Source: Candidatus Heimdallarchaeota archaeon (GTDB lineage Archaea > Asgardarchaeota > Heimdallarchaeia > Heimdallarchaeales > Heimdallarchaeaceae). From it: 64,000 bases of DNA. Positions 11,894 through 39,327 of the stretch are shown piece by piece. The notes beneath the pieces were generated by a model that was not told the origin of the DNA, did no database searches, and was given only the letters and a program-made list of their open reading frames with translations. A program made the position numbers and the translations under genes. Position 1 is the first letter of the stretch, and every line of letters starts with the position of its first letter. The stretch spans positions 27,506 through 91,505 of the forward strand of contig JAEOSZ010000011.1 in assembly GCA_016840095.1 (NCBI GenBank), in the 5' to 3' direction.

Positions 11894-12691
11894 TTGTTAT
11901 TCAGAACACCTTATATTACACTCATTGTTTATTCTATTAAACATCTGTTAGGTGTTATAATGATTAATGAGGTATATGTGATTCAGGAAAGTGGTATTCC
12001 ACTTTACTATTATAATTATGAACAAATCATCTCAAAGATACAAGTTAGAGATGATTTTTATACTCTTCAAGCAGGTTTCTTTGCTGCGCTTGTTCAATTT
12101 GGATCTGAACTAGCTCAAGATGAGTTAAAGTATATTATCTTCAACAATAGAACATATGGTATTAAAAGAAGTAACGATCTATTTGTAGTTTTTAGTGATA
12201 ATATCCAACTGTCTGTGGAACAGCTAAAAGAATTGGATAAGAAACTTGAAATTGCTTCCTCTTATATAAATAAGAAATTAGGCGACACAAATCTAGATAT
12301 CACTTATGCAATAAATGAGCATCAAATGGAACAGCTTATTGGTAATTTTAGTGAATTTCTTTATCAGGAAAAAATTATTGAAAAAGAAGAAATTTTGGAT
12401 AAAAATGTCCTAAAGAATCAGGTTCAAAAATTCGTTTTCAAAGCAATCGGCTATGAACCTGGAAAATGTAACATAGGACACAGAGAAAGAATGATTAGGC
12501 TAACCATGGGAATGATATCAATGATTATTGGTTTAGTTTATTTTGCTCTAGTAGCAGTGTACCCTATACTTCCTATCTGGACAGTTTTCTTTACTTTTAT
12601 TCCATTCTTAATAGGTTTTGTTGGAATCTATCAATCTTTCTTTAGATTCTGTGTTTCAAATGCATTTAGAAAAGTATACAATATGAATTAG
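11894..12691 (+). CDS. Longin-like domain fused to a C-terminal DUF2892/YgaP-like membrane hairpin (probable start 11960)
   Basis: MINEVYVIQESGIPLYYY...LQAGFFAALVQFGSEL...LKYIIF (longin-like); C-terminal YEPGKCNIGHRERMIR, two TM helices, RFCV. Confidence 0.65.
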   Translation: MLFRTPYITLIVYSIKHLLGVIMINEVYVIQESGIPLYYYNYEQIISKIQVRDDFYTLQAGFFAALVQFGSELAQDELKYIIFNNRTYGIKRSNDLFVVFSDNIQLSVEQLKELDKKLEIASSYINKKLGDTNLDITYAINEHQMEQLIGNFSEFLYQEKIIEKEEILDKNVLKNQVQKFVFKAIGYEPGKCNIGHRERMIRLTMGMISMIIGLVYFALVAVYPILPIWTVFFTFIPFLIGFVGIYQSFFRFCVSNAFRKVYNMN

Positions 12692-12702
12692 GTGGTAAAA
12701 AA

Positions 12703-12861
12703 ATGTCCAAAGTAGAATTAAAACTGAATTATGAAGGCGCGATTTCAAGCCCTGAAAACGTTAAGAAGGATTTTAAGAAAGCAATTAGAATAGTAGCACT
12801 CTCGTTTATATCAGCAGCAGTATTGAGTTCTATATTGTACTTATTACTTTTCTTTTCTTAA
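12703..12861 (+). CDS. Small tail-anchored membrane protein (52 aa)
   Basis: Manual ORF MSKVELKLNYEGAISSPENVKKDFKKAIRIVALSFISAAVLSSILYLLLFFS with a GGTGG SD at 12691-12695. Confidence 0.6.
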   Translation: MSKVELKLNYEGAISSPENVKKDFKKAIRIVALSFISAAVLSSILYLLLFFS

Positions 12862-12914
12862 TCTTTCATTCATAAATGTTATATAAGCTGAAATAAGTTT
12901 TTTAGAAGATAAGA

Positions 12915-13751
12915 ATGTTTGAGATTTTCGAAACTTTTCTCTTTGATGGAGATGGAGTTCTTTACAAAGAAGATTCACCTCTTCCAGGAGCTATTGAATT
13001 TTTACAATTACTTGCAAAAAGAGGCAAACAGATATTTATTTTAACAAATAATAGTACAAAAACTAGAGAAGAATTTCAAGAAAAACTGAAGAATTTAGGG
13101 ATAACTTTACCTATTGATCATATCCTAACTTCAGCATATCTAACAGCTAAATATATTGAGAAAGAAAGTCCCAACTCCTCTGTATATGTCATTGGAGAGC
13201 AAGGTTTGAAACAAGAGTTAACTTCTGTGGGATTGAACATAGTAAATAATTGGGAAGAAGAGAATGATGAGGATATCTTCAATCTAGGTTTCGATGAGAT
13301 AGAATATGTTGTTACTGGAATGGATAGAAGTTTCAATTATACAAAGATTGCTCGAGCTACACATATTCTAGTAAATTATGAGAAAGTTAAGTTTATTGCA
13401 ACAAATGGTGATTTTACTTTTCCAACAGTTCAAGGTTTAATTCCAGGTGGTGGCGCAATGATTGCGATTCTAGAAGCATTATCTGATAGAAAAGTTGCAG
13501 GAATAATTGGAAAACCAGCACCATTGATGTATGAAAAAGCTGTTGAGATTGCCAAATCAAAAAAGGAAGTTTCTATAATGTTTGGAGATAGAATTGAAAC
13601 AGATATTTATGGAGCTAATGATGCTGGAATTACTTCTTGTTTAGTATTATCTGGTGTAACAACCATGAATGATCTTGGGAAGCTTGTAAATGAAGAAGGT
13701 CCAGATATAATTATTAACAATCTTGCAGATGCTATTGAGGATTTTAACTAG
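12915..13751 (+). CDS. HAD-IIA hydrolase (NagD/phosphoglycolate phosphatase-like)
   Basis: FDGDGVLY, LTNNST, IGKP, GDRIETDI motifs. Confidence 0.92.
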   Translation: MFEIFETFLFDGDGVLYKEDSPLPGAIEFLQLLAKRGKQIFILTNNSTKTREEFQEKLKNLGITLPIDHILTSAYLTAKYIEKESPNSSVYVIGEQGLKQELTSVGLNIVNNWEEENDEDIFNLGFDEIEYVVTGMDRSFNYTKIARATHILVNYEKVKFIATNGDFTFPTVQGLIPGGGAMIAILEALSDRKVAGIIGKPAPLMYEKAVEIAKSKKEVSIMFGDRIETDIYGANDAGITSCLVLSGVTTMNDLGKLVNEEGPDIIINNLADAIEDFN

Positions 13752-31602: not shown

Positions 31603-34593
31603 ATGACAATATCAGTTGAATCTAATTCAGATATGTACATCTTTGACAGCCTTATGCTATATAATTTTAAAATGCATAAGACTACAGATTTAAAGCTATC
31701 AGAAGTTCCAATTGTTGTCATTTCAGGCGCTAATGGGAGTGGAAAAACACAGATTTTGGAAGCTCTAATAATTGCAATAGGTCATGTCCCAAATAGAGTT
31801 TCATTGAGTACCTACAAAGAGGTTGTTGGTCCTTTTGACAAGTTCACTCAAATCAAACTTAAATTGAACAATCCACGATTAAGTGATAAAAGAGTTTTCA
31901 CAACTTCGGACCCTGATTTAATACCGTATGTTGAAGAAGATTTTTTCATTGTTGATGTAAAAATAAATCATGATGGAAATATTAGAAGAAAGATAGTTGA
32001 TAAGAGAGGAAAGGGAATAAACGTTACAAAGAAGCAAATCCAGATTCTAATGAGAAATATCGGAATATTTGACGATACCATGCTAAATTTTACTGAGGAA
32101 GGTTATCTTAGTTCTTTTGCCGATGGTTCCCCTCACAAGAAATTAGACAGTTTGCTAGTGGCAACAGGACTAAAAGAGATATTCAGTAGTTATATCAACT
32201 CAAAGAAAAAAGTTCAAGAGAAGGAGAGAGAGTATTCACCTTTAGTAATGCAATTAGAAAAAGAGGAGAATAAATTAGAGAGACTCAGAGAGAATTTTGA
32301 TAGAATACAGAAAAAGAGAGAACTCATCGAAAAATATGATTTCCTTGAGAGGGAGTTATTCTGGTTTAATGCTATGGAAAGTCAGAAGCATTTAGAAGAA
32401 TCAACTCAGAATCTTATTACTAAAAAGACTGAATTGGATGACATAGAAAAGAAGCTTGGTGCTTCTTTGATTGATCAAGAAAATCTTAGTGAAGAGGTAA
32501 AAAAAGTAGAGGAGTCTCTAGTTGATAGAAAGACCAAAATGAGAGAAATGTCTGACCAAAGAAATAGATTGGAAGGTCAGAAAGAAGAGAAAAATAGAGC
32601 AGTAGTATCTTCAAAAAATCAGATAAGAAATATTAATCAGAAATTGAGTGAATTTGAGAATATTCAAACTGATGAGGGATTAACTCAAAAAAGAAATTTG
32701 CAAAATCAACTGGATGATGTAAATAGAGAATTGTCTAGTCTGAACAGTGAACTACAAACTAGTCAGATAAATCTAAAAAACAAAGTTGTAGAAGAGGATA
32801 AAATTAAACAAAGAATTAACGAAAGATCTCAACTTTATGGAGAGTTATCCGATTATGAAAGAAAATTGATAAAGGACTGTATTTTATATAAAGAGAAAAT
32901 TCAAAATTCAGATTTTAAGGATGAAATAATCGGACCAATTTACGAAATAATTTCGATAAAGAAAGGGTTCGAGAATTATACTGAAGTTGTAAAAACATCT
33001 CTCGGAAGATCTCTTTTTGGATTTGTTGCTACTTCTCATAATGCATACAAAGAAGCAAAGCGAATCTATGATGAAGTTTTCCCCTCGTTTAAACCGAATT
33101 TCACAGTAGGGAGGGTATTAGAGGATGAAAAAGGTCCAAAACCTGATTACTTAACAAGCCAAATAATAGAAAATAAACCTGAAGGGATAATTGATTTTGC
33201 AGTCAATTTAATTGAAGCTCCATTTCAAGTTAAGCTATATTTAGTTAAATTTGTAAGGATACTATTAGGTTCTCCATCATTACCTCCGAATCTCTTAACA
33301 GATTATGCAAAGCAATTCAAAACTAACATTCTGACAACTGATTGTAACAGTTACTATCTCTCTCAAGAAGCATTCTCAAGACCACCAAGAAGATATAACT
33401 TAAAGTTGAGTTTAGATCTGAACAAATATCAGTCAATTGAAAGAATAAGAGAACAGCATCAATTAGTTCAATTTGATATCGAAAAGATAACAGAAGATAA
33501 AATCAGAATTACCAGAAGCTTAGCTGAATGTGAAGGTAATAAACGAGATTTAGAAACCCAATTGAAACCATGGAAAATGGGAGCTGACGAAATAGAGAAT
33601 GAATTTTTAAGATTACAGCAAATCAGAACCGCTGCAGAATCCTTAGTAAGATCAGAAACTGAAAACCTTACTAAACTAGATACAGAAATTACTAAACTTG
33701 CAGACAATATCATTGTAATTGAGAAAACTGTATCTGAAGAGCAGAAAAAATTCGATGTAGTAAGAAACAAGTTGAATAATTTAAATCAAGAAATCAAAGA
33801 TTTTTCAGCTGAAAAAAATAAACTTATACGAATGATAGATTTTCTTGAAATAGAAGTATCTGATCTCAAAACAGCATTTGAAACACTAAATGAACAAGCT
33901 GTTCAGAAAGGAGAACCTCCAGAAAATATCCGCTCTGATAAAGAGGAGATCTCCTCAGAATACAATAAAATTAAAGGACAATTAGAATTATTAGATATTA
34001 CCCCTGAAGTATCACAGGAAAGCATAGAAAAACAAGAACAACATGTCAATATCCTTCGTGATGAAGTGAAAAATACAGAAGTTCATTTGAATAATCTGAA
34101 AGAAGATTTAGATAAAAGAATCAATGAGTGGGAAGGAGGACTTCACAATATTGTAGAACATTTGAATAAGATGTTGAGCTTGCTTCTTCAAGATATCTTT
34201 GAGAATGTATCTATACAAATTCGAAATTATAATGATGAAAAAAATGCAGGGTTACATATTGAAGCAGAAACTAAAGGAGATAATAGAAAATATAGACAAC
34301 TCTCTGGGGGAGAAAAAACACTATTAGCTCAAGCGATAATTCTTGCGCTGCATATGATTAACCATTCTCCAATACATGCAATAGATGAGTTTACTCAAAA
34401 GCTTGATAAAAGGAATAAGGCTCTTGCATTTTCCATGGCTTTAGCAACATATAGAATTTCAAAAGAGAGTAGGATAATTACCCCTCAATTTATACTTATA
34501 ACACCCTCTCTCGATGATGTAGAACTCTCAAAAGAATTCGCTCATAAGGTTTTGATAGAGAGTAAAGTTAAGACTCCTGAGGTGAAAACTTGA
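31603..34593 (+). CDS. SMC-family ATPase, SMC5/6-like
   Basis: LYNFKMH, Walker A GANGSGKT, coiled coils, hinge IIGPIYEII...SLGRSLFGFV, signature LSGGEKT, Walker B/D-loop AIDEFTQKLD, QFILITP. Confidence 0.88.
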   Translation: MTISVESNSDMYIFDSLMLYNFKMHKTTDLKLSEVPIVVISGANGSGKTQILEALIIAIGHVPNRVSLSTYKEVVGPFDKFTQIKLKLNNPRLSDKRVFTTSDPDLIPYVEEDFFIVDVKINHDGNIRRKIVDKRGKGINVTKKQIQILMRNIGIFDDTMLNFTEEGYLSSFADGSPHKKLDSLLVATGLKEIFSSYINSKKKVQEKEREYSPLVMQLEKEENKLERLRENFDRIQKKRELIEKYDFLERELFWFNAMESQKHLEESTQNLITKKTELDDIEKKLGASLIDQENLSEEVKKVEESLVDRKTKMREMSDQRNRLEGQKEEKNRAVVSSKNQIRNINQKLSEFENIQTDEGLTQKRNLQNQLDDVNRELSSLNSELQTSQINLKNKVVEEDKIKQRINERSQLYGELSDYERKLIKDCILYKEKIQNSDFKDEIIGPIYEIISIKKGFENYTEVVKTSLGRSLFGFVATSHNAYKEAKRIYDEVFPSFKPNFTVGRVLEDEKGPKPDYLTSQIIENKPEGIIDFAVNLIEAPFQVKLYLVKFVRILLGSPSLPPNLLTDYAKQFKTNILTTDCNSYYLSQEAFSRPPRRYNLKLSLDLNKYQSIERIREQHQLVQFDIEKITEDKIRITRSLAECEGNKRDLETQLKPWKMGADEIENEFLRLQQIRTAAESLVRSETENLTKLDTEITKLADNIIVIEKTVSEEQKKFDVVRNKLNNLNQEIKDFSAEKNKLIRMIDFLEIEVSDLKTAFETLNEQAVQKGEPPENIRSDKEEISSEYNKIKGQLELLDITPEVSQESIEKQEQHVNILRDEVKNTEVHLNNLKEDLDKRINEWEGGLHNIVEHLNKMLSLLLQDIFENVSIQIRNYNDEKNAGLHIEAETKGDNRKYRQLSGGEKTLLAQAIILALHMINHSPIHAIDEFTQKLDKRNKALAFSMALATYRISKESRIITPQFILITPSLDDVELSKEFAHKVLIESKVKTPEVKT

Positions 34594-35357
34594 CTGATCA
34601 AGATATAATTGATGATACTTCAGATATAATTTCAACCTATATAGAGGAGAATAGAGAATGGGTTGAGAATATATTTCAACTTGTTTTTGAGCTCAAGAGG
34701 AAATATGGTAAGTCAATAAGAAAGAAGGAAATTGTACAATTGATTGAATCTGAAGAGGATCGGTCCAAAGTTTCTGATGCTTATATATATTTGCAGAGTA
34801 AAAAAGAAAGTATTCTGGATTCAGCTCTTTATGAAGATTTCATCAAAATGAATGAATTAAGAGAAAATGATCTTTTAGAACAACTCCTTTATCCACATGA
34901 AAGACTAAAAACTTTCGCAGATAAAGTAAAAAGTTTGTGTATTCCAATAACATATTTCTCAGGAACAACTAAAACATCCTATGAGGAACCTTTAAACAAT
35001 TTAACTGAAGAAGTAATAAATTTAGAATCAATGGAAGATATTAAGAATTTTTTGAATAAATATCAATCTTTCATGGAGCATCTATCGATAAATTTTCTAG
35101 ATAAAGGTGACATCTTGAACATTGAAAATGAAATTAAGGAAAAGCTAGTAGGTAAGAAAATCAAGAAGAATAAGATGAACGAGCTCTTAACAACTTTAGA
35201 AGCTGAAGTTTTATCCAAATTAATAAGTGAAAAGAAAATTCAAGTGATTTTGAATGATGATGAACTAATTTTTCAAAACGAATTAGAAGAAGAATCTGAA
35301 GTTATTTCAAGTTCAGTACTTCTCTCACCAAAAAATACGAATGAAGAAAGTGAATGA
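34590..35357 (+). CDS. Putative kleisin (Nse4/ScpA-like) subunit
   Basis: TTG start overlaps the SMC stop, with a GAGGTGA SD; helical N-terminus; C-terminal LSKLISEKKIQVILNDDELIF resembles the end of a kleisin winged helix. Confidence 0.5.
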   Translation: MTDQDIIDDTSDIISTYIEENREWVENIFQLVFELKRKYGKSIRKKEIVQLIESEEDRSKVSDAYIYLQSKKESILDSALYEDFIKMNELRENDLLEQLLYPHERLKTFADKVKSLCIPITYFSGTTKTSYEEPLNNLTEEVINLESMEDIKNFLNKYQSFMEHLSINFLDKGDILNIENEIKEKLVGKKIKKNKMNELLTTLEAEVLSKLISEKKIQVILNDDELIFQNELEEESEVISSSVLLSPKNTNEESE

Positions 35358-35965
35358 TTATGGAAGAGAATCATCTGGAAGAGCCTATTGAAGTTAATGA
35401 GGTTGTAGAAGAAAATAATTTTCTACCTTCTTCTATATCAGATGAGGAAAAAGGAGAACTCTTTAGAGAACTTACAACAATTTTATCCAGAAAATGGGTA
35501 AAAGAAAAAGTTACAGTATTTGGATGTTCAGAGCTTGATTTATTATTAGCAACTCGCTTCGATATCCAAACCTTGAGAGAAACAATTGATGAATACAGAT
35601 CATTTGTTCAGATCTTAGGTCTCAATGTCATTGAATATGATATGAATGGAGAAAAATGGTATTGTCTTAGATCTTCACATTACGCTCCATCCGATTTACA
35701 ATCAGCTGAATTGATTGTTTTAGGAACTATCATTGCTTATCTGGAAAGTGATAGAGATAAACCAATAACTACTGAAAGAATAAAAGAGAAATTAGTAATT
35801 ACAGGAAAGATGAAAGAATATCTTGTAGAAAATAGTCTGAGGAGATTAACAAGGCTTGGGTATATTAAGAAAAAGCAAAGTGAGTGGGACTATAACTACA
35901 GAACATTCATAGAATTTGGTGAAGATGAGAGGGAAAAAATCGTTGAGGAGTTCAGAAGGATTTGA
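35354..35965 (+). CDS. KITE (Nse1/Nse3-like) tandem winged-helix protein
   Basis: LRETIDEYRSFVQILGLNVIEY...KWYCL (WH-A) and AELIVLGTII...VENSLRRLTRLGYIKK...YNYRTFIEF (WH-B). Confidence 0.7.
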   Translation: MIMEENHLEEPIEVNEVVEENNFLPSSISDEEKGELFRELTTILSRKWVKEKVTVFGCSELDLLLATRFDIQTLRETIDEYRSFVQILGLNVIEYDMNGEKWYCLRSSHYAPSDLQSAELIVLGTIIAYLESDRDKPITTERIKEKLVITGKMKEYLVENSLRRLTRLGYIKKKQSEWDYNYRTFIEFGEDEREKIVEEFRRI

Positions 35966-36417
35966 AGGGACAAGAAGCAATCTACTGCTATATCAGGTGT
36001 ACTTTCTGTAATCAGATGAAAACTCTAAAAGATGCTGCTCTAGAAGGATGGGAAGTCTGCAACAGATGCCAGTTAGTTTTCTGTGATGAATGCAAAAAAG
36101 CTAATGAGAAAGAAGAATTATGTCCAGGATCTGTTTACACAACAAAACATTCAGCAAATTTTGACCTTCTTCCAGTTGAACAAATAATTGAAACTGCAAA
36201 TAGCATTGAAAGGCAACCAAAGGAAAGCAAGTTTATATCAAAAATCTTCTTTGAAGATGAAAAGAAAAAAATTGAAGTCCTTAGAAGAAATAATAAGAAA
36301 AAAGATTCAGCTGATTTTAGTATTGTTAGATTTCGAGAAGAGCAATGGAGAAAATTTGGTACTGTTTTAGTTAAGAGGAAAGATGGTAAATTTCTAACTT
36401 GGGGTCAATTAGAATAA
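35962..36417 (+). CDS. RING-like two-zinc finger protein
   Basis: CTFC-x16-CNRC-x4-CDEC-x9-CPG...H; start overlaps the KITE stop. Confidence 0.65.
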   Translation: MKGQEAIYCYIRCTFCNQMKTLKDAALEGWEVCNRCQLVFCDECKKANEKEELCPGSVYTTKHSANFDLLPVEQIIETANSIERQPKESKFISKIFFEDEKKKIEVLRRNNKKKDSADFSIVRFREEQWRKFGTVLVKRKDGKFLTWGQLE

Positions 36418-36450: not shown

Positions 36451-39327
36451 TTAGATTCCAGTTATTGCTTCTGCACGAGAACCTAGTATCACATTTGTGA
36501 TGAAGAGACTGATTATCTGTAATAACATCAGAAGCACACCAATGGCGCAGAAAATCTGGAATTTTAATGGATTCCATGCCATGTACCATGTGATTGTTCC
36601 AGCTCTCGCTGACAGTATCAGAAATATAGTCGTTGAAACTTCTGACAAACAGTACAGGAATGAAACTAAAGATCCTGCAAATACATTCAGTGAGATTAAT
36701 GGAATAGTAATCTTAGCGAAAGTCTTCATTCTTGATGCACCTAAATTAAATGAAGCCTCCTCTAAGACTTGGTCTACTTGTTGTAACCCTGCATAAGCAG
36801 AACGAACCGTAAATGGTATTTTCCGTATAGTGTAACTCATCACCAACAGAGTTATTGCAACTCCTACAAAGGGATCTAACCTTAATCCTGCCGTAATTTT
36901 CGCCATCATGTTGTTGAATCCAGTTGGATTTGCAGATGCTATTCCACTCCAATCAAATGTTCTATAATACCCGATTGCTAGCACGATTCCTGGAATTGCA
37001 ATAGGTATAGTAACAACTGCATCTAGTATTTGTCTTCCTCTGAACTCCTTTCTACTTACAACATATGCAGCAAGTGAGCCTATTATAATGATAATTAATA
37101 CAGCAAGGACACTATAGACAAGCGTATTAATAATATAAGGAGGTATATTATATTGTGATTCCGTAAAGATGTCTTTGTAATTTGAACCCGTGAATGATAT
37201 ATCTGAAGGTCGCGTGCCACCTAGTGTTTCTAGAAATGACATCAGTATAACTCCTACATGTACAAGCAAAGAGAATGTAAATAACAATATCAAAAATGGA
37301 TAGATTATAAGCAGTTTCCATCTTGCTTTGGATAGCCTATATTGTCCTGCTCTTCCTTTACTTACCATTGAATATGTTTTTAGAGATACATATTTTCTAA
37401 TTGCAAAGAATCCAATAAGGGCTATAATTAGAAGTATCGCTCCAAGAACACAAACTTCAGGCGTGATCTCAACTGACCCCGCTTTGGAAAAATTTTCAAA
37501 AACATAATATGGTAGGAATTTCTTAGCTTCAGCATCTCCCATTGCTGCAAAGATAATTGGAGTACCTACATCCTCCATAGAAAGGATTAGTACTAAGATT
37601 GCACCAGCTCCTATCCCAGGCATTGCCAAAGGTAAAGTAACAGAACGGAATAATCTAAAACTTCCAGCTCCAAGATTCTCAGCTGATTCTTCCATACTAG
37701 GATCGATATTTAAGAATGAAGAAAATGCATTAAGGTAGACTAAAGCATAGAAATGAGAAACCTGAACGAATACTATAGCAAACATTCCAGAGAATATTAA
37801 CTTTGTTTGAAATAATGGTATAAGTAAGAAATTATTCAAGAAACCATTCGGTCCTAAAATTAGTCTGAATCCCATACCTGAAATGAAAGGAGGTATAATA
37901 AGTGGTGCAAGAGCAAGAACACTTACCAATTTCTTTCCTGGGAATTCAAATCTGGCTAGAACAAATGCTAAAGATGTTCCTAGTATGACTGAAAAGATAG
38001 TTGTCATAAAACCAAGTATTATTGTATTAAGTACTTCACCATGATCTTTACCACTCAGAGTTATTACAGTAATTTCAACTGTATCTTCATACTCTGCAAT
38101 TAATGGCAGACTAACAGCAACTTGGGAAATATCTAAGATTACGGTTCCACCCTTTAACTGTGAAAGGAACAATAGATTATTAGTCGTATCTATATAGAAA
38201 TCACTTGTTCTAAATACAGCTGTGGTATATTCATTCAAATGTATAAAATTAGAAATGTTTGTAACATCAAATACTTGAATACCATAAGAGAAAGGAAGAC
38301 TATCATCTAATGAAATGAAGTACCCTAAATTACCCAATATCTCAACTTCATAGAGCTCACCAACTTCTGCATCAGTGTAATGTTCAATCAGCACTAGGTT
38401 TGATGGATCGGAAATATTGAAAATTCCTAAACCTTCTTCAGCTAGTGTTATGTAAGCAATATCTCCCACTATGTCAATATCCTGAGTTGGTAGTGGGTCG
38501 ATGATTGAAAGAGAATCAGTTGTGTGATGATAAGCAAGAACTGGAAGACTAGGGTCGGTTATATCATAGATTTTAACTCCAGTTGTATAACCTACAACAT
38601 ATAACAAATTATTGTCAACAAAAATCTCATCTGCATCAGTGGCAACATCTGTTACGTTTAATACAACAGGTTCAAATGGATCTGTAATATCAATAATTGC
38701 AAAACCCTTTCCATTAACATCTAAAAATGCTAGATTATCCTCCACTAACAGAAAATCTGTATTGTTAGCTAAATCATAAATGTGACACATTGGAGCGAAA
38801 CTTTCATACACATCAGATATGTTGAAAATTACTAGACCACCTTTTCCTGCAGCAGTGTACAGAAGATCATCAACAATAACCATTTCATTAAAACCACTGA
38901 TTTCCTCATAGTATTGCCGTACTTCCGTAATCTCAGATGGGTTCGTAATATCTAGAATTTCTATACCATGACTTCTTTCAGCGCTAAAAACAATATTTCC
39001 ATCAACTGAAACAGCTGCAGCAGGTCCTCCAAAATCTTGTTTGTCTTTAGAGAAGAATTGCGTTTGATTATCTCCCGGAAAATTAAAGAAACGTTCTGAA
39101 AAAACATTAGCTATCGGAGCTCCAGAAAATTGTCCATTGAAATAAACCGCTCCTGTTAGAACTGAGAATAGTGGGATAATCATCCAAACAATAAAAATGA
39201 ATGCCACAAGAACTATTATGAAATTTGTCGACGGTTCTCGTAATAATTTGACATAAAGAAAATCAATAATTGATCTTCTCTTTTTTACTTTTCCCTCTTC
39301 ATTTGATTTATCACTAGAGCTAGCCAT
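36451..39327 (-). CDS. Fe3+/thiamine-type ABC permease with an inserted LVIVD beta-propeller
   Basis: Two permease halves with EAA-type motifs (SMEESAENLGA, VLEEASFNLGA); repeats such as GIEILDITNP, GLVIFNISD, GFAIIDITDP, GVKIYDITDP, GLGIFNISDP after TM1. Confidence 0.88.
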   Translation of the reverse strand: MASSSDKSNEEGKVKKRRSIIDFLYVKLLREPSTNFIIVLVAFIFIVWMIIPLFSVLTGAVYFNGQFSGAPIANVFSERFFNFPGDNQTQFFSKDKQDFGGPAAAVSVDGNIVFSAERSHGIEILDITNPSEITEVRQYYEEISGFNEMVIVDDLLYTAAGKGGLVIFNISDVYESFAPMCHIYDLANNTDFLLVEDNLAFLDVNGKGFAIIDITDPFEPVVLNVTDVATDADEIFVDNNLLYVVGYTTGVKIYDITDPSLPVLAYHHTTDSLSIIDPLPTQDIDIVGDIAYITLAEEGLGIFNISDPSNLVLIEHYTDAEVGELYEVEILGNLGYFISLDDSLPFSYGIQVFDVTNISNFIHLNEYTTAVFRTSDFYIDTTNNLLFLSQLKGGTVILDISQVAVSLPLIAEYEDTVEITVITLSGKDHGEVLNTIILGFMTTIFSVILGTSLAFVLARFEFPGKKLVSVLALAPLIIPPFISGMGFRLILGPNGFLNNFLLIPLFQTKLIFSGMFAIVFVQVSHFYALVYLNAFSSFLNIDPSMEESAENLGAGSFRLFRSVTLPLAMPGIGAGAILVLILSMEDVGTPIIFAAMGDAEAKKFLPYYVFENFSKAGSVEITPEVCVLGAILLIIALIGFFAIRKYVSLKTYSMVSKGRAGQYRLSKARWKLLIIYPFLILLFTFSLLVHVGVILMSFLETLGGTRPSDISFTGSNYKDIFTESQYNIPPYIINTLVYSVLAVLIIIIIGSLAAYVVSRKEFRGRQILDAVVTIPIAIPGIVLAIGYYRTFDWSGIASANPTGFNNMMAKITAGLRLDPFVGVAITLLVMSYTIRKIPFTVRSAYAGLQQVDQVLEEASFNLGASRMKTFAKITIPLISLNVFAGSLVSFLYCLSEVSTTIFLILSARAGTITWYMAWNPLKFQIFCAIGVLLMLLQIISLFITNVILGSRAEAITGI

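Follow-up and report, generated by a model that had tools for sequence, protein, structure and literature searches.

What is the small cysteine-rich gene that closes an archaeal SMC operon, and does it bear on how SMC5/6 acquired its ligases? To our knowledge, no eukaryotic SMC complex other than SMC5/6 has ubiquitin and SUMO ligases built into it, and the origin of these two ligase arms is an open question. The window analysed here, a 64,000-nucleotide (nt) stretch of Candidatus Heimdallarchaeota DNA (GCA_016840095.1, contig JAEOSZ010000011.1, positions 27,506 to 91,505), holds a four-gene operon in which genes for an SMC-like ATPase, a kleisin-like protein and a KITE-like tandem winged-helix protein are followed by a gene for a protein of 151 amino acids (aa) with a cysteine-rich domain, hereafter the Zn protein. 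The original prediction, made from the sequence of the window, was that the last two genes are a split Nse1, i.e. a state preceding the fusion of a KITE and a RING domain, which could link ubiquitin-like ligation to an archaeal SMC complex. Here, the 151-aa open reading frame (ORF) is identified as a genuine and conserved fourth gene of the Asgard SMC-kleisin-KITE operon.

The Zn gene was found in 28/31 genomes of the window's family, including all six of high quality, and it is single-copy. Across the phylum, the family profile (A1) detected it in 62 of 400 sampled genomes, and the gene was found in only eight of the 33 sampled Asgard families (f1 27/30, f2 1/1, f3 1/3, f6 2/2, f7 11/12, f8 1/1, f12 16/19 and f29 1/1, where f12 is Hermodarchaeota and f7 is labelled Heimdallarchaeota), with one weak partial match in f20. 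A broader hidden Markov model (A2) found it directly after the KITE gene in two further f3 genomes, G041 and G042. All of these counts come from related, often incomplete metagenome-assembled genomes. A KITE profile (A3) matched 74/400 genomes, and its strong matches fall in exactly the eight families that have the Zn gene; the distant KITE-like operons of f5, f14, f15 and f28 were inspected and hold no Zn gene. One of these, in f5 (L042, G068:C246:1-6000), consists of an SMC gene, ORFs of 136 and 126 aa, a kleisin-like gene, a distant KITE-like gene and a 287-aa ORF. Comparison of coordinates by hand placed the KITE and Zn genes side by side, and always as separate genes, in 60 of the 62 genomes with an operon-type protein, spanning all eight families. 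The full order SMC-kleisin-KITE-Zn is present in 15/18 fetched loci, the other three being contigs of 2.6-3.9 kb. Presence of the gene in orthologous operons, on which the original prediction was to stand or fall, is thereby confirmed.

The form of the junction between the two genes varies from lineage to lineage. In the window the KITE stop codon (TGA) and the Zn start codon (TTG) have three bases in common within TTGA at 35962-35965, and the ORF listing has the four operon ORFs co-directional with a 4-nt overlap at each of the junctions. The overlap of the KITE ORF by a stand-alone Cys-rich ORF was therefore read correctly from the start. All 29 junctions compared have a KITE stop and a Zn start of their own: an NTGA overlap in 19, a 1-nt overlap in one, an 11-nt overlap in two, a spacer of 20-44 nt in five, and zero gap with a shared frame in two f3 loci. 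The 19 NTGA starts are TTG in the 12 loci of the window's genus and three others, ATG in three and GTG in one. In all 12 loci of the genus the NTGA overlap provides the sole start codon 5' of Cys13, so that the first CxxC is part of the Zn protein; some gene callers start it at Met19, giving 133-aa entries. In the two f3 loci (L040 4261-5439 and L041 339-1487) the KITE and Zn ORFs are in frame, with a single stop (TAA or TAG) and then ATG between them, and read-through would yield a fusion.

A sequencing error or frameshift at the junction was considered and rejected, given the separate stop and start at all 29 loci and two Logan contigs of sequencing run X1 (35846-35974 and 35945-36406) that span the junction with no differences and no insertion or deletion. 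Run X1 may be the window's own source sample, and runs X3 and X4 (small share) cover only pieces of the locus. Fused versions did not turn up either: no open frame of the Zn gene in the 400 Asgard genomes is longer than 203 aa, which leaves no fused form in those genomes, and no KITE-Zn fusion was present among the 69 matches (E<=0.001) of a profile search of 1.84 billion representative proteins.

The operon is of the kind called SMC5/6-related in the literature, with genes for an SMC, a kleisin and a kite together in one operon, the kleisin being assigned by position and the SMC5/6 affinity of the SMC being taken from the literature. The SMC-like protein scores 117.5 bits against the canonical-SMC NCBIfam model TIGR02168 (cut-off 567), and no hinge match was obtained for it in the Pfam and NCBIfam scan. 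Two other ORFs of the same genome (G000:C73:1423-2229 and G000:C139:1426-2076) outscore it on SMC_N (E about 1e-30); they may be another SMC-superfamily gene split across contigs, or contamination (7.8%). The kleisin-like protein matched no Pfam, NCBIfam or PADLOC family, and homologues of it occupy the same slot in 15 fetched loci. The KITE-like protein has weak MksE (0.004) and winged-helix Pfam matches over residues 109-196, so the predicted stop right after the second winged helix holds roughly. Among 13 KITE family members, a Pfam scan gave MksE in two, MAGE in one (0.0011) and MarR_2 in five, and no homology to solved structures was detected with the KITE profile. At window position 35390, in the acidic low-complexity tail at the KITE N-terminus, an X1 contig carries a 24-nt in-frame insertion that looks like a strain variant. 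Close homologues carry the names Heimdallarchaeaceae or Candidatus Heimdallarchaeota; among them are those of isolate AB_125 (89% identity) and of Ca. Heimdallarchaeum aukensis and Ca. H. endolithica, both of which have closed genomes. Downstream, the Zn gene is convergent with a permease gene that ends at 36451. The coordinates are collected in Table 1.

Table 1. Genes of the SMC operon and regions of the Zn protein, in window coordinates
Feature	Position	Strand	Description
SMC-like ATPase gene, first in operon	31603..34593	+	996 aa; Pfam SMC_N 2.3e-21
Kleisin-like gene	34590..35357	+	255 aa; putative kleisin, by position
KITE-like tandem winged-helix gene	35354..35965	+	203 aa; stop TGA overlaps next start
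Zn protein gene, last in operon	35962..36417	+	151 aa; TTG start
Putative two-zinc domain	35998..36150	+	residues 13-63; eight ligands in four pairs
Lys/Arg-rich variable linker	36262..36327	+	residues 101-122; 8 K/R and 3 D/E in 22 residues
C-terminal conserved motif, putative docking element	36328..36408	+	residues 123-149

The Zn protein matches no curated family in Pfam, NCBIfam or PADLOC. Its ligands are spaced C13-x2-C16-x16-C33-x2-C36-x4-C41-x2-C44-x9-C54-P-G-x6-H63, which agrees exactly with the pattern first noted (CxxC-x16-CxxC-x4-CxxC-x9-CPG..H), although the ORF does not begin with it, as had been stated, the first Cys lying 12 residues after the start. In alignment A2 (25 sequences from the eight families) C13, W30, C33, C36, C44, C54 and H63 are invariant, while positions 16 and 41 vary only among C, H and D. 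A wider table of 77 sequences, 57 of which have a residue at all eight ligand columns, has Cys33 and Cys36 unchanged throughout, C, H, D, N or G at position 16 and C or D at position 41; position 54 is Cys in all complete sequences, and the exceptions are the truncated P0058 (His) and P0075 (Pro). In one subfamily the last ligand, His at +9 to +11, is replaced by a Cys at +5 to give C-x4-C, a compensated change and thus the behaviour expected of a true ligand. All ligand variation other than this swap falls in pairs 1 and 3. Furthermore, pairs 1 and 3 are jointly missing from P0069 and P0071, two members of the C-x4-C subfamily that keep pairs 2 and 4, Trp30 and the C-terminal motif. This fits an interleaved cross-brace, in which pairs 1+3 would hold one metal and pairs 2+4 the other, and is not expected for sequential sites. 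Proteins of this subfamily lie on contigs of 558-1442 nt, and nothing was found when P0071 and P0050 were used as queries against the genome contigs. Meanwhile, a low-confidence ESM Atlas model of the homologue P0029 (predicted local distance difference test score, pLDDT, 0.58) had a RING or B-box in 7/10 structural-neighbour rows, the alignments covering mostly residues 1-75 and some reaching residue 139. A cross-brace topology, which the original prediction required, is thus probable, as judged from the joint loss of pairs 1 and 3, and the domain probably binds two zinc ions and belongs to the RING/FYVE/B-box structural class.

Within that class the zinc domain is, on the sequence comparisons made, a family of its own. 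A profile search of the PDB (E<=10) gave only chance-level matches, among them the RNF4 RING (0.047) and TFIIH p44 (2.2). Pfam matches of the 25 A2 members at E<=10 all lie below the curated cut-offs and are spread over several families (IBR 10, DUF4637 8, IBR_1 8, ANCHR-like B-box 6, FYVE 4 and zf-RING_2 3), and FYVE_2 was matched at 3.9e-4 in the fusion protein P0099. The genome from which the window comes has 20 zf-RING_2 matches, 11 of them over the cut-off and none at the Zn ORF; alignment of the zinc domain with the best eight of these 20 RINGs by hhalign gave a probability of 9.5% over 16 columns, against 0.2% for a reversed control. The Zn protein has no Pfam RING match of the kind that defines a canonical RING-H2.

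A second and more conserved part of the protein lies at its C-terminus. Mean column identity is 0.76 over residues 123-149, compared with 0.53 for the zinc domain and 0.37 for the linker, the lowest together with the N-terminal tail, and E127 and W129 are invariant in A2. The 69 matches among representative proteins comprise operon-type proteins (143-192 aa, with the C-terminal motif), fragments, short paralogues with the zinc domain only, and fourteen longer proteins, none of which has the motif. Seven of the longer proteins (group A) have the zinc domain at the C-terminus (99% match) behind a helical part that matches KITE at 0.1% by hhalign; three (P0089, P0095 and P0099) have a Ras-family GTPase domain followed by the zinc domain; three have a Cys/His-rich N-terminal part with no Pfam family and an unconfirmed resemblance to SWIM; and in one the zinc domain is N-terminal and is followed by a coiled coil. 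P0064 and P0103 are repeat proteins that match only over short pieces. The motif is thus found in operon-type proteins and is missing from all fusion proteins and short paralogues. The zinc domain therefore appears to be a reusable Asgard module and the motif to be specific to the SMC operon, and this restriction suggests that the motif, of about 27 residues, probably docks the protein on the SMC/kleisin/KITE module.

The linker between the two conserved parts raises the alternative that the Zn protein binds nucleic acid, as a loader, a targeting factor or a regulator of the operon, with no connection to conjugation. Its basic composition (Table 1) would suit such a role, as would weak matches to the zinc ribbons of RNA polymerase subunits and EndoQ. 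However, no part of the protein is less conserved than the linker, the interleaved eight-ligand pattern is unlike a zinc ribbon, and the gene linkage described below, present in four families, would be left unexplained. The nucleic-acid explanation is accordingly considered improbable.

A link to ubiquitin-like (Ubl) conjugation does exist, in sister lineages of the window's family, namely Hermodarchaeia and some Heimdallarchaeia. In f7 the KITE and Zn genes are followed by genes for a Prok-JAB protein (4.9e-9), a ThiF protein (1e-38), a 103-aa Ubl-like protein, a 270-aa E2-like protein (UQ_con 0.0044) and a small ORF, and in f8 and f29 Prok-JAB and ThiF come next after the Zn gene. An orthologous ThiF gene lies on the contig of the Zn gene in 8/11 f7, 1/1 f8, 1/1 f29 and 12/16 Hermod genomes; the remaining cases are contig breaks, apart from G087, where both are absent. 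In Hermod genomes ThiF is 7-9 kb from the Zn gene, upstream of the SMC gene. The cassette of one such locus (L037) has JAB and ThiF on one strand and the remaining genes on the other, divergent from the SMC gene: a transglutaminase-core gene, a 128-aa zinc paralogue without the C-terminal motif, a 72-aa ORF, and the E2-like and Ubl-like genes. The transglutaminase-core gene (L037 1457-2329, 1.2e-20) directly adjoins the zinc paralogue. The f7 and Hermod cassette genes are orthologous (E2-like 1e-48 to 1e-50, Ubl-like about 1e-31, JAB 1e-38 to 1e-56). The E2-like proteins keep an HPR...C signature and have weak E2 matches in the PDB (0.084), and the Ubl-like proteins end in a conserved Val-Gly plus 0-3 residues, an ending that would fit processing by the JAB peptidase.

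The distribution of the E2-like gene of the cassette is nested within that of the operon. A profile of the E2-like protein matched 32/400 genomes, all in f6, f7, f8 and f12, i.e. four of the eight families with the Zn operon and none of the 25 without it; the chance of such nesting is about 0.002 (hypergeometric), a figure that makes the case look too strong, as the families are kin. Co-occurrence with canonical E2 enzymes is uninformative, as UQ_con is near-universal (297/400 genomes). The same E2-like profile found nothing in the 31 genomes of the window's family, two closed ones included, nor in f2 and f3, and single-protein queries detected no JAB, E2-like or Ubl-like orthologue in the window's own genome. 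That genome has four UQ_con E2 matches, and its best ThiF match, at 33% identity, stands beside a canonical E2 on another contig. The ubiquitin-like link that had been proposed for this SMC operon thus holds for sister lineages but not for the family in which it was proposed.

A different association was observed in a closed genome of f14 (L100/L038, G116:C1:1902000-1925000), where a distant SMC (851 aa)-kleisin-KITE operon without a Zn gene is preceded immediately upstream by a canonical ubiquitin set. The set comprises JAB, a UQ_con E2 (3e-32), a ThiF E1 (6e-59), two RING proteins and an AAA ATPase; one of the RING proteins is SprT/M48-like and has a weak zf-RING-like match (0.008). In 5/6 genomes of this genus, about 8 kb separate the E2 gene from the KITE-like gene. 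Elsewhere, locus L026 holds an aromatic amino-acid lyase gene (11930-13657) with a rubredoxin domain inserted at residues 281-328, next to a second lyase gene that is free of the insert.

The linkage could be taken to mean that the Zn protein is an E3-like part of the Ubl cassette only, lying beside the SMC operon by genomic accident and not a subunit of the complex. In f7, f8 and f29 the Zn gene has KITE on one side and the JAB-ThiF genes directly on the other, and the same domain occurs inside the Hermod cassette. However, in f1, f2 and f3, which have no cassette, the Zn gene is still coupled to KITE, and in Hermod genomes the cassette is on the other side of the operon with a paralogue of its own, while the operon-type Zn gene still follows KITE. 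Furthermore, the Zn gene and the strong KITE matches share the same eight families, a pattern at odds with accidental proximity, and this explanation is judged unlikely.

The combination of an SMC operon with conjugation genes also invites comparison with anti-plasmid or anti-virus defence of the Wadjet or Lamassu kind coupled to conjugation resembling that of Bil or CBASS, with the Zn protein as a sensor or effector adaptor. The SMC has weak PADLOC matches to LmuB (1.7e-21) and JetC, and the E1 and JAB proteins of the cassette resemble the CBASS E1-E2, BilD and JAB models. Nevertheless, PADLOC gave no match for the kleisin, KITE, Zn, E2-like or Ubl-like proteins, and no nuclease gene is present; the presence of the Zn gene as a single copy in 28/31 genomes of the window's family also speaks against a defence function, which appears very unlikely.

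The split Nse1, taken strictly, would make the Zn gene the direct ancestor of the variant RING of Nse1, later fused to KITE and already acting as a ubiquitin E3 on an SMC complex. The order KITE then Zn mirrors the domain order of Nse1 and the two genes are tightly coupled, in f3 to the point of sharing a frame with one stop between them. The domain is likely cross-braced, with Cys at ligand 4 as in the C4HC3 ligand order that the accessible text of PMC8750328 gives for the Nse1 RING. The Ubl cassette in sister lineages and the four UQ_con E2 matches in the window's own genome are also in line with it. However, the likeness to Nse1 and TFIIH-p44 RING variants suggested by the original prediction was not borne out by profile searches. 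The Nse1 RING family (PF08746, zf-RING-like) had no match on the Zn ORF at E<=10 and only chance-level matches elsewhere in the genome. A six-frame search of the same genome with SMC_Nse1 (PF07574, E<=10) gave three chance-level matches, none of them at the KITE gene (C45:62859-63470), and SMC_Nse1 was likewise absent from the Pfam scan of the 13 KITE family members. No Nse1 chain appeared in the PDB profile search (E<=10), in which p44 reached only 2.2. Furthermore, ligand 5 is Cys or Asp and not His, ligand 8 is His or Cys, and the protein has an extra C-terminal module that had not been predicted. No fusion was found among the 1.84 billion representatives, where a KITE part could be detected in none of the 13 longer proteins that have the zinc domain behind another part, and the gene was found in only eight of 33 sampled Asgard families. 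What stands of the split is a conserved gene pair; a 'pre-fusion state of Nse1' is a hypothesis drawn from gene order, and direct descent of the kind described is highly improbable.

The reading we favour, and hold with slightly more confidence than doubt, is that the Zn gene encodes a fourth subunit of the SMC operon that docks through its C-terminal motif and was ancestrally E3-like or an adaptor. The Zn protein would be made in step with KITE through the overlapping stop and start codons. Its C-terminal motif would anchor it to the SMC/kleisin/KITE module, and its cross-braced domain would recruit a partner, ancestrally the E2-like enzyme of the linked cassette. Ubl conjugation would thereby have been brought onto or near the SMC complex or its substrates; this ancestral role is proposed because the operon is linked to the Ubl cassette, with a zinc paralogue in Hermodarchaeia. 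In Heimdallarchaeaceae the cassette would have been lost and the Zn gene kept, and in the window's family the Zn protein would most likely be a structural or regulatory subunit, or the partner of a canonical E2. The gene, its conservation and coupling, the ligand pattern, the cassette linkage and the distribution are direct observations, and binding to the complex and any ligase activity are proposals built on them.

Several points weigh against this reading. In two genomes the gene pair is not intact: in G079 (L029 852-1430) the gene preceding the Zn gene encodes an Arf-family GTPase (2.5e-43) and not KITE, and in G083 the KITE and Zn genes are on different contigs. No RNA run was listed for the locus. 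The fold, the zinc stoichiometry, the docking role and any interface are predicted from sequence. P0069 and P0071 group together in the tree (97/94, on long branches), so that their joint loss of ligand pairs was probably one evolutionary event, and both are on contigs shorter than 1.4 kb. The commonest weak Pfam match is to IBR (10/25 members), a domain that is not known to be cross-braced. In RINGs the hydrophobic surface of the helix after ligand 6 contacts the E2; in the window's genus this helix is Lys-rich, and it is hydrophobic in other lineages. The cassette counts represent four related families and not 32 independent cases, and G031 has the operon, JAB and ThiF with no UQ_con match. 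Finally, the cassette is missing from the window's family, and an E3-like role is consequently not directly transferable to the gene in the window.

A broader scenario can be drawn in which the partnership of SMC5/6 with ubiquitin-family ligases is pre-eukaryotic: a stand-alone, cross-braced zinc subunit in the Heimdall/Hermod ancestor would have tethered a dedicated Ubl-E2-E1-JAB system to the SMC-kleisin-KITE complex, with the eukaryotic Nse1 RING (or the Nse2 arm) deriving from this arrangement by later fusion or replacement. This scenario is put forward tentatively and is, in our judgement, doubtful. An archaeal origin is possible for the ligase arm of eukaryotic SMC5/6, although this does not imply descent of the Nse1 RING from the Zn gene. 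In any case, a conserved, coupled fourth gene and its linkage to a Ubl cassette make binding of the Zn protein to SMC proteins, and directed Ubl conjugation, testable with recombinant archaeal proteins. The data also define a new Asgard zinc-domain family, which has been reused behind small GTPase domains.

Comparison with known systems begins with the archaeal SMC-kleisin-kite operons already described (bioRxiv 10.1101/2024.01.07.573240; Yoshinaga & Inagaki, PMC8665677), whose three-gene core recurs in the same order in this Asgard archaeon. In the comparative account available so far, to judge from the accessible portion of bioRxiv 10.1101/2024.01.07.573240, archaeal SMC5/6-related operons have three subunits each, and archaeal kites lack the RING of Nse1, which is described as an innovation of eukaryotes. 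Unlike these operons as published, the one described here has a conserved fourth, zinc-finger gene. The word 'zinc' has no occurrence in the main texts of the same two papers, and in the literature no description was found of an archaeal SMC operon with a fourth gene of zinc-finger type or with a linked Ubl cassette (supplements were outside the search). The three-gene operon was thus already known, whereas the fourth subunit gene and the cassette linkage are apparently new to the literature.

The RING protein of the E1-E2-RING-Rpn11 operon of Caldiarchaeum and Asgard archaea, as given in the accessible text of PMC5654768, is likewise a small stand-alone zinc protein that accompanies E1, E2-like, modifier and JAB genes, as the Zn protein does in sister lineages. 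It differs in that the Zn domain is not a canonical RING-H2, that the E2-like and Ubl-like proteins here are highly divergent (UQ_con 0.0044), and that the operon-type Zn protein has a C-terminal motif and is encoded together with SMC genes. With FYVE, B-box type 1, ZZ and IBR domains the Zn protein shares the central C-x2-C-x4-C-x2-C spacing, but its last pair is C-x8-10-H or C-x4-C.

With respect to the subunits of eukaryotic SMC5/6, the gene pair resembles Nse1 in having a KITE module followed by a two-zinc, probably cross-braced domain, in its association with SMC, kleisin and KITE proteins and, for the Zn gene in sister lineages, in a link to ubiquitin-family conjugation. Unlike Nse1, KITE and Zn are separate polypeptides in all 60 adjacent pairs, the ligand order is C4C3H or C4C4 and not C4HC3, the Zn protein has the extra conserved C-terminal motif, and the operon has a single KITE gene and no Nse1/Nse3 pair. 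The Nse1 RING acts largely as a structural or regulatory element. Nse2/Mms21 is an SP-RING SUMO ligase docked on the arm of Smc5, and the SP-RING binds one zinc, unlike the Zn protein with its eight ligands. Like Nse2/Mms21, however, the Zn protein would be a separate RING-like subunit with a second module for docking on an SMC5/6-type complex.

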